A DNA stretch of 42,323 nucleotides. Origin: Escherichia coli (lineage in GTDB: Bacteria; Pseudomonadota; Gammaproteobacteria; Enterobacterales; Enterobacteriaceae). The notes under the pieces were generated by a model. That model worked only from the letters and a program-made list of their open reading frames with translations, made no database searches and was not told where the DNA came from. The stretch lies in assembly GCF_003334385.1 (NCBI RefSeq), contig NZ_QOWN01000038.1; one strand, given 5' to 3'. The translations under genes were made by a program, and so were the position numbers. Shown here in pieces: positions 13,793-14,419 of this stretch. The number at the start of each line of letters is the position of its first letter. The stretch's first letter is position 1.

Positions 13793-14270
13793 AAAATTCC
13801 TTATTCATCATTTGTTTTATGCTAAGATGTTTAAATTGGATAATTAGAACAGGAATGGATTTTCTTCTACACACAATAAATGTAATGCGTTATATCTTCC
13901 TGATATAATTACCTTTGATTTCCCTTTTATCTCCACCCGGTAATATTTGTGTGTAAAAAAAGGGTAGTGATAGTATCGTAAAGGAAATCGTTAACAACTA
14001 TCAAAATGCGCTCATTTTAAAAAGTTATTATGTTCTCTGATAGTGTGTGAAGTGATTTTTTTGTGATGTTTTAGATGTGTAATAATAAAATGGGTTAAGG
14101 TATCTTATAATTATTTAATAATTTGTTGTGTAAACCACTGATAAATCATAATCCAGTACGTCTTTAAACTACTGCGCTGTATCGCTGATAACTAAGCAGC
14201 TCACTGATACACCATGCTGGACGCGATAATTGGAATCTCACGCAGGGAGTACTGTGTAAATAGCAAAATC

Positions 14271-14370
14271 GCCTGATGCGCTACGCCTGTCAGGCCTACA
14301 AATAACATACTATTCATCGAATTTTCATAACTTTGTAGGTCGGATAAGACGCGCCAGCGTCGCATCCGAC
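14271..14370. repeat. Pair of inverted REP elements (BIME)
   Basis: gcctgatgcgctacgcctgtcaggcctac (14271-14299) and tgtaggtcggataagacgcgccagcgtcgcatccgac (14334-14370) are typical REP palindromes in opposite orientation. Confidence 0.65.
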
Positions 14371-14419
14371 ATAAATAAAGCGCACTTTTCTAACAACCTG
14401 TGGGGGGGATATCGCCGCT

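Follow-up and report, generated by a model that had tools for sequence, protein, structure and literature searches.

The arsC-yhiS spacer of Escherichia coli read as a mosaic of an AT-rich promoter island, arsenic-gene relics and a degenerate REP pair

Introduction

The silencing of foreign AT-rich DNA by H-NS is a recognised function, and a C-rich, G-poor stretch of about 80 nt in untranslated RNA is the signature of Rho utilisation (rut). Promoter islands, which are reportedly also treated in Shavkunov et al. 2009, are the described elements closest to the DNA studied here. Panyukov & Ozoline 2013 (PMC3661553) catalogued 78 of them in MG1655, requiring at least 300 bp of extreme PlatProm start-point density, and one of the 78, designated 3648929_470, belongs to the gene pair arsC(+)/yhiS(+). 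This island occupies 470 bp (U00096.2 3648929-3649398) and carries the mark ‘A’, meaning that it was bound by H-NS according to all ChIP-chip studies in K-12 (PMC3661553 Table 1); it was also scored as foreign DNA by three methods (PMC3661553). 5’-end RNA-seq of K-12 found long RNAs in the last quarter of the genome from the yhiL/yhiM island alone (PMC3661553), hence none from the arsC/yhiS island. A 2026 preprint places yhiS among the high-affinity H-NS/StpA sites, and the eLife 2024 supplement on promoter islands makes no mention of the arsC/yhiS island. That a promoter island coated by H-NS and transcribed poorly lies before yhiS is therefore already known, from literature of 2009-2013.

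Silencing of this kind is connected with transcription termination. H-NS filaments are reported to co-localise with Rho termination (Kotlajich 2015, PMC4337669), and NusG/Rho is reported to block the transcriptional invasion of H-NS-silenced genes (Bossi 2019, PMC6797219).

Here we describe the spacer between arsC and yhiS in a stretch of 42,323 nt of Escherichia coli DNA (contig NZ_QOWN01000038.1), referred to as the window, whose first letter is position 1. The composition of the spacer, its homologies, the gene relics, the identity of the REP elements and the absence of a conserved ORF or RNA structure were computed for this work.

Borders and composition of the spacer

The region is the junction of the arsenic-resistance genes and the acid-fitness island of E. 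coli, with the following genes around the spacer; arsB and arsR lie beyond arsC and are encoded on the minus strand as well.

11069-11599, minus strand: dctR (ORF map and RefSeq annotation of identical DNA)
11755-12354, minus strand: slp (ORF map and RefSeq annotation of identical DNA)
12569-13792, minus strand: yhiS, an intact ORF of 407 aa, the AT-rich orphan gene downstream of the spacer
14420-14845, minus strand: arsC, which closes the arsRBC operon and precedes the spacer (RefSeq annotation of identical or near-identical loci agrees)

Since the yhiS ORF starts at 13792 and the arsC stop codon is 14420-14422, the spacer is 13793-14419, 627 nt long. It is 99.8-100% identical to the K-12 copy (100% in the K-12 strain ER1709); over the longer interval 12355-14419, many wild strains in which yhiS is intact match the window at 100% identity.

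The preliminary description of this DNA had delimited the spacer as an exact ORF-free interval, and both its coordinates and its lack of genes hold. The longest ORF, of 54 aa, crosses the REP elements, and none of the ORFs is conserved; every ORF of at least 20 aa that lies fully within the spacer is broken by a stop codon or a frameshift in at least one of seven alleles of the same form. The long A/T tracts that had been noted are likewise confirmed, as homopolymers of at least 4 nt, including A7 at 13955 and T7 at 14056, occur at 31.5 per kb, compared with 11.8 per kb window-wide (about 2.7 times as many).

The description of the spacer as AT-rich applies to one of its two parts. The 349 nt from 13793 to 14141 have a GC content of 0.278, the lowest of any 349-nt stretch in the 42-kb window (0.07% of such windows are as low), whereas the remaining part, 14142-14419, has 0.40-0.50. 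Stepwise along the spacer the values are 0.278, 0.40, 0.46, 0.48, and 0.50, and the spacer as a whole has 0.356; yhiS has 0.338, the window 0.47, and the ars genes 0.52-0.54. The further claim, that the interval is one unusually long untranslated leader, had to be abandoned, as about 45% of the spacer (14142-14419) consists of pseudogene debris, a REP pair and the 3’ flank of arsC, all unrelated to yhiS. The 627-nt spacer is thus a mosaic of four unrelated pieces instead of a single leader, which illustrates that a large intergenic distance is not evidence of a long UTR.

Relics of an arsenic permease and its regulator

The spacer was compared by megablast with 5,426 complete E. coli genomes. 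The full spacer, in the short form seen in the window, is present in 3166 of them, and most of the others match just the first ~315 nt. In the four loci of this second type that were inspected (L002, L004, L005, and L006, with O104:H4 among them), a permease gene and an ArsR/SmtB gene stand between arsC and yhiS, without exception. We refer to this arrangement as the long form; the permease and regulator pair is intact at the arsC-yhiS site in about 38% of complete E. coli genomes. The long-form permease has 337 aa, is encoded on the yhiS strand and matches Pfam ArsP_1 (E 4e-53); the regulator, of 98 aa, is divergent, belongs to ArsR/SmtB and scores above the cut-off of NCBIfam HTH_metalloreg.

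When the window is aligned with the long form, 13793-14141 matches at 90% identity and 14207-14419 at 79%, and the 65 nt between these two segments hold the first of the following two relics.

14148-14195, minus strand: relic of an ArsP_1-family permease, from the interior of the protein (residues about 207-222), found by nucleotide match and tblastn
14208-14276, plus strand: relic of an ArsR/SmtB gene, its last 22 codons and stop codon, found as an in-frame ungapped match

The segment 14148-14195 contains a match of 16 of 17 nt to positions 5934-5950 of L002, whose score of 29 compares with 18.9 in shuffled sequences (sd 1.8, maximum 24; z about 5.5), and in tblastn its translation LVISDTAQ*FKDVLDY aligns with LATKDALQQFKDVLPY at E 0.024. 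Strand and order are those of the long form, and plasmid copies of the permease align at the same position. On this sequence evidence we assign the segment to the permease with moderate confidence.

The regulator relic is clearer. Its translation YTMLDAIIGISRREYCVNSKIA and the intact counterpart YAMLEAIIEFLREECCVNSKIA are identical in 15 of 22 residues (68%; tblastn E 5e-7), so that the match is in frame, syntenic, on the same strand and ends in a common stop codon, TGA at 14274-14276, which lies inside the first REP element (REP-a) as it does in the intact gene. Stop codons in the same frame stand immediately upstream of the relic, and alleles L008 and L009 have an extra one.

The origin of the relics can be traced from the end of the regulator. 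More than 800 enterobacterial plasmids also carry this permease and regulator pair, there followed by arsH, with an identity of about 84%, but the plasmid regulator has 107 aa and its C-terminal end reads ...VNSKTDVAEHAGKNG, while the chromosomal regulator and the relic in the window both end in VNSKIA*, with ‘IA*’ provided by the REP. This common ending indicates that the relic derives from the long form on the chromosome, at a time when the REP was already in place. All seven short-form alleles have identical junctions, which indicates that the deletions arose once. Between short and long forms, the right-hand homologous part has diverged by 16-27%, yet arsC next to it is up to 100% identical (L005), a pattern that points to old alleles reshuffled by recombination.

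According to this reconstruction, a permease gene of the ArsP family and, divergent from it, the gene of its ArsR/SmtB regulator would formerly have stood between arsC and yhiS and been removed by at least two deletions, and the remains at 14148-14276 (~130 nt) would be non-functional. The unusual length of the spacer is due to this debris, which accounts for nearly half of the supposed leader and marks a place where the chromosomal arsenic cluster is polymorphic, with the gene pair present or absent. We regard it as a modest addition to the known picture.

The REP pair and the search for a small RNA

The part of the spacer nearest to arsC contains the following elements.

14271-14299, plus strand: REP-a, with 2 mismatches to the REP that is exact at 25776-25804 of the window; 0 matches in shuffled sequences
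14300-14334, no strand: L-like linker of 35 nt, the canonical length
14335-14371, inverted: REP-b, whose core matches exactly; 0 matches in shuffled sequences
14372-14419, minus strand: arsC 3’ flank, the 48 nt between REP-b and the arsC stop codon

An inverted REP pair had been announced at this place and is indeed found at 14271-14371. It is near the arsC stop codon, as stated, but does not abut it, being separated from it by the 48-nt flank. A perfect inverted repeat of 10 bp (14373-14382 / 14416-14425) spans the arsC stop codon and forms in the computed fold.

The window also contains a canonical BIME-1/RIP at 25776-25875, composed of a REP, a linker and an inverted REP, and the pair at 14271-14371 has the same architecture and linker length; it also consists of two inverted extragenic REPs, located between the arsC stop codon and yhiS. 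The linkers are where the two elements part. The ES036 model scores 42 bits at 25797-25837 of the canonical element, above its gathering threshold of 37.6, and 20.2 bits at the arsC-yhiS linker (ES036/CssrF), with 28.2 bits in a long-form allele. By hand count, 20 of 35 linker positions are shared with the canonical L motif, and the IHF consensus WATCAANNNNTTR has no exact match in the linker, which consequently does not qualify as an L linker with an IHF site. We therefore read 14271-14371, from its sequence, as a degenerate, decayed BIME-1-like pair and not as a demonstrable IHF-binding RIP. The Z1/Z2 labels for REP subtypes misfit the canonical BIME-1 in the window and were not adopted. By analogy, the most likely role of the pair would be that of a 3’ stem-loop of arsRBC: situated ~50 nt past arsC, it would protect or end the arsRBC mRNA.

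The same element bears on the proposal that a gap of this length conceals an unannotated small RNA. Rfam was searched permissively on 12500-15500 and with gathering thresholds on the whole window, and no family reached its gathering score in the spacer. Below threshold, naRNA4/CssrE (31 bits, gathering 59.5) covers the REP pair, as does ES036/CssrF at the 20 bits given above; a reader in search of an sRNA could take encouragement from them, but both families are REP-derived and both scores are far under gathering, when a real ES036-class element scores 42. The spacer has no intrinsic-terminator-like site on either strand, and covariation among its alleles is almost nil (-1.04 kcal/mol); on these counts it does not qualify as an sRNA gene. 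In favour of a small protein, a plus-strand ORF of 29 aa (13819-13908) is intact in six of the seven short-form alleles. Its changes are mostly non-synonymous, however, and like all other ORFs of at least 20 aa within the spacer it is broken in some allele. The RefSeq annotation of MG1655 lists agrA and agrB nearby and no feature in the spacer, no sRNA or small protein from the arsC-yhiS spacer is reported in the literature searched, and the published 5’-end RNA-seq yielded no long RNAs here (PMC3661553). The proposal of a small RNA or small protein is largely refuted, and we consider it extremely improbable.

The AT-rich part as the K-12 promoter island

The other part of the spacer contains the following elements.

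13793-14141, minus strand: AT-rich yhiS upstream region, with the yhiS Shine-Dalgarno sequence AAGGA at 13798-13802 and promoter-like sites
13841-13855 / 13897-13911, no strand: imperfect inverted repeat TAATTAGAACAGGAA / TTCCTGATATAATTA, with 41 nt between the arms
14020-14123, minus strand (yhiS-sense RNA): G-poor, C>G rut-like tract, a candidate zone of Rho termination or insulation

The published island was placed on the window through NC_000913.3, where arsC ends at 3650662 and yhiS starts at 3651291. We take the offset from U00096.2 to U00096.3 to be 1,977 nt; under this assumption the neighbouring island falls correctly between IS5 and slp. The arsC/yhiS island then corresponds to ~13707-14176 of the window, that is, to the AT-rich part and the first 85 nt of yhiS. 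Given that the K-12 spacer is 99.8-100% identical, the membership in the catalogue extends to the DNA studied here. So does the origin ascribed to promoter islands, horizontally acquired AT-rich DNA, as the GC content is low, yhiS has no family and the locus varies between strains.

The density of promoters was judged with a simple scan for sigma-70-like sites. In the island region the scan found four such sites, all in yhiS sense (minus strand), compared with a mean of 0.88 per 470 nt, which puts the region in the top 5.6% of the window; its TANNNT density is in the top 3%. Two of the promoter-like sites (14004-13975 and 14134-14107) have -10 hexamers ending at 13975 and 14107. Dinucleotide-preserving shuffles of the region yield 4.3 +/- 2.6 promoter-like sites against 5 in the real sequence, and because shuffling gives the same number, the density of sites is a by-product of AT-richness. 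Allowing at most 2 mismatches, the 10-mer TCGATAAATT to which H-NS binds with high affinity has 0 matches in 13793-14141, but its total in the window is not above chance, so that the motif is uninformative here.

The suggestion that nucleoid proteins silence this DNA is upheld by the literature on the K-12 copy, which is H-NS-bound in all ChIP-chip studies and adjoins a yhiS that counts as an H-NS/StpA site. H-NS occupancy and transcriptional silence at the arsC-yhiS spacer are thus supported, from K-12, where yhiS is split by IS5.

Conservation and folding upstream of yhiS

Among all E. coli alleles, short-form and long-form together, the leader is 87-96% identical, the 5’ coding part of yhiS 78-100% and arsC 94-100%; the leader is accordingly about as variable as the beginning of its gene and more variable than arsC. 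Conservation is unevenly distributed within it, the 120 nt nearest to yhiS being better conserved than the rest. The arms of the inverted repeat, which are the sole zero-mismatch matches to their pattern in the window, coincide with the two 25-nt bins of the leader that vary least, where the pairwise difference is 0.015-0.020, compared with 0.11 overall. The leader RNA of the K-12-type allele present in the window folds with a z-score of -3.26, and 0 of 100 shuffles were as good. Taken together, the fold and the conserved proximal 120 nt may indicate a specific regulatory element beyond generic coating by H-NS, and the repeat at 13841-13911 may, judging from its sequence, be an operator or a stem in the 5’ UTR. 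It may also be a new, if small, feature of the locus. By eye, it showed no convincing match to the GAD-box, EvgA or RcsB consensus sequences.

These observations raise the alternative that the AT-rich stretch is a long structured 5’ UTR of yhiS, transcribed from 14134-14107 or 14004-13975, in which the fold, or a factor bound at 13841-13911, would control translation or stability. The z-score, the orientation of the promoter-like sites on the correct strand and the placement of the repeat arms in the most conserved bins would all agree with it. The comparison of alleles does not, as RNAalifold on 11 alleles gave a covariation term of -1.04 kcal/mol, with a single compensatory pair that is confined to one B2 clade. 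RNAalifold does pair the repeat arms, but the pairs are nearly invariant and therefore say nothing for or against an RNA structure, while the stem 13917-13926 / 13980-13989 of the window is broken in most other alleles. Moreover, the site 14134-14107 lies in the most variable, indel-ridden part of the leader (pairwise difference 0.29-0.38), no cis-regulatory family of Rfam matches, and the published 5’-end RNA-seq is without long RNAs from the island (PMC3661553). We consider a long regulatory 5’ UTR quite unlikely. The real yhiS promoter probably lies within the better-conserved 13793-13916. No mapped yhiS start site was found in the literature searched, and the Cappable-seq supplement has no entry for yhiS or arsC.

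A G-poor tract between arsC and yhiS

Read as yhiS-sense RNA, the 78 nt 14123-14046 contain 15 C and a single G, a C/G ratio that no other 78-nt window on either strand of the 42 kb reaches, and thereby have the composition of a rut site. The bias of the complete tract, 14123-14020, is kept in all 11 alleles, with 20-22 C and 3-5 G. From this composition and the published association of H-NS with Rho, we infer that Rho may terminate arsC read-through and spurious transcripts at 14123-14020. No locus-specific data on Rho, bicyclomycin or rho-dependent 3’ ends for arsC-yhiS were found in the papers and supplements searched. The conserved G-poor tract may be a new, small feature, and it would represent a candidate Rho-dependent insulator between arsRBC and a silenced foreign gene.

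A more elaborate role can be imagined for the tract. The loss of the permease and ArsR genes would have placed the arsenite-inducible arsRBC operon directly before yhiS, the two being separated by no intrinsic terminator, and the G-poor tract and the repeat would then form a conditional gate, through which read-through under arsenic stress or limited Rho/NusG counter-silences yhiS. If true, a silenced orphan gene would in certain strains have been rewired to respond to metal stress, but we consider this very unlikely.

State of yhiS and overall interpretation

Sequence searches with YhiS found nothing significant in Pfam, NCBIfam, PADLOC, PHROGs or the PDB. An outgroup scan with YhiS as the query, by a pattern method that reaches close relatives only, returned a single 409-bp low-coverage contig of an Ensifer assembly, which is E. 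coli contamination. The gene is intact in the window and in many wild strains, and a pseudogene in K-12 (split by IS5), in O104:H4 (frameshift), in B2 strains (truncated) and in others; its surroundings frequently carry insertions of IS5 and IS1. The surrounding DNA also changes in laboratory evolution. A viable evolved clone carries an IS5-mediated deletion of 1,421 bp annotated to arsC and yhiS (PMC7260982), which on the MG1655 map would remove the whole spacer, and an arsC/yhiS intergenic mutation was recorded in evolved MG1655 populations, a control line included (PMC6928379).

It could consequently be argued that the spacer is neutral junk, bound by H-NS incidentally because it is AT-rich, in a yhiS locus that is decaying. 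The many lineages with a yhiS pseudogene speak for this, as do a leader as variable as the gene, the tolerated laboratory deletion annotated to arsC/yhiS (PMC7260982) and promoter-like sites that do not exceed what composition predicts. On the other hand, yhiS has remained intact in the window and many wild strains, the distal edge is clearly less conserved than the proximal 120 nt and the G-poor tract, and the silencing of AT-rich foreign DNA by H-NS is in itself a recognised function. We consider neutral junk unlikely.

The reading that we prefer, with a probability of roughly three in four, is a mosaic of an H-NS-silenced promoter island, a probable Rho tract, ArsP/ArsR debris and a decayed BIME-1, in which the action of Rho, the function of the REP pair and the position of the yhiS promoter are what we infer. 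Under this reading, yhiS would belong to an islet of AT-rich, horizontally acquired DNA whose upstream edge is 13793-14141, and which H-NS (and StpA) would coat, holding the transcription of yhiS near-silent. Rho would probably end, at 14123-14020, the untranslated RNAs that arrive from arsC or start at spurious promoters, which would strengthen the silencing and shield yhiS from the arsenic-inducible operon. Most of this is known and ordinary, REP pairs being routine, and the gain for the arsC-yhiS spacer is mainly a tidier annotation.

Comparison with known systems

The pair at 14271-14371 resembles BIME-1/RIP elements in its two tail-to-tail REPs, its 35-nt linker and its extragenic position shortly past a stop codon. 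It differs in REP-b, whose loop is longer than that of the Y-type REP in the canonical element at 25776-25875. Long-form strains have a copy that comes nearer to the canonical element (28.2 bits), but its REP-a is truncated. The Rfam entries ES036 (CssrF) and naRNA4 (CssrE) are themselves derived from REP/BIME sequences.

Compared with the modules of ArsP_1 permease and ArsR/SmtB regulator (with or without ArsH) of enterobacterial chromosomes and IncF-type plasmids, the relics align in the expected order and on the expected strands. Unlike the intact modules, they amount to ~16 and 22 codons, are interrupted by stop codons, diverge by 16-33% in DNA and would have no function left.

With the systems in which H-NS and Rho/NusG jointly silence xenogeneic DNA, the locus shares AT-rich foreign DNA, H-NS occupancy (in K-12) and an untranslated C>G tract before the silenced gene; what sets it apart is that its dependence on Rho is a prediction from sequence.

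The closest match is to the promoter islands of Ozoline, with which the AT-rich part shares its base composition, dense promoter-like sites, binding by H-NS and poor transcription (in K-12), and its place beside foreign DNA, although here composition alone accounts for the density of promoter-like sites. In the K-12 copy yhiS is split by IS5 and here it is intact; otherwise there is no essential difference.

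Variation of the ars cluster among strains

Between strain AH65, which carries the long form of the locus with ArsP_1 permease and ArsR/SmtB genes between arsC and yhiS, and the window, arsC is 100% identical (comparison over 14374-14845), whereas the 46 nt directly downstream of it show an identity of only 78%. This abrupt change in the aligned sequences indicates that recombination has left a sharp breakpoint where arsC stops, at its stop codon. The B2-type strains (L003, L010, and L011) lack arsR and arsB and retain arsC alone, beside dinQ; all three also have the spacer in its short form, and their yhiS is truncated.

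The permease/regulator pair is also found in more than 800 enterobacterial plasmids. Its DNA there is about 84% identical to that of the chromosomal pair, with one plasmid copy reaching 96%. In p14EC029c, the pair is followed by arsH. Two copies are located on IncF-type plasmids:
L014, 2501-4874: ArsP_1 permease and ArsR/SmtB pair
L015, 2501-3968: ArsP_1 permease and ArsR/SmtB pair

The yhiS gene and its surroundings

12569-13792, minus strand: yhiS, intact in the window, 407 aa

Pfam, NCBIfam, and PADLOC hold no match to this orphan gene and PDB none of significance, beyond a faint hint of pentapeptide repeats (E 0.14). Some other strains have yhiS as a pseudogene, interrupted by IS5 in K-12, frameshifted in O104:H4, and cut to about 380 nt in B2 strains. 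Its AT-rich surroundings recurrently carry insertion sequences across strains, and IS1 also lies within the window-identical stretch in three further strains (hits H31, H34, and H35):
L001 (K-12), 2129-3109: IS5, inside yhiS
L005 (AH65), 4647-5344: IS1, inside the permease gene

A mini-ORF of nine codons, ATGATGAATAAGGAATTTTATGTCAATTGA (13782-13811, minus strand), overlaps the Shine-Dalgarno and start codon of yhiS in a different frame. Its second ATG is unchanged in 11 alleles and is not preceded by a Shine-Dalgarno sequence.

The assembly of Ensifer sp. MPMI2T includes a 409-bp contig (NZ_SRXN01000179.1, 0.77x coverage) that matches the 3' end of yhiS from E. coli at 99% identity and almost certainly derives from contaminating E. 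coli DNA.

Known RNA families and BIME-1 in the window

The following elements were located, the RNAs as Rfam matches above gathering:
1308-1421: GadY
7200-7271: ES205
16705-16788 and 16936-17019, minus strand: agrA and agrB, a pair of antisense RNAs in the AgrB family (dinQ toxin locus)
25776-25875: canonical BIME-1/RIP, a REP, a 35-nt L linker, and an inverted Y-type REP

The agrA/agrB pair adjoins arsR. The linker family ES036 (CssrF) exceeds gathering in the window only at the linker of the canonical BIME-1 (42 bits).
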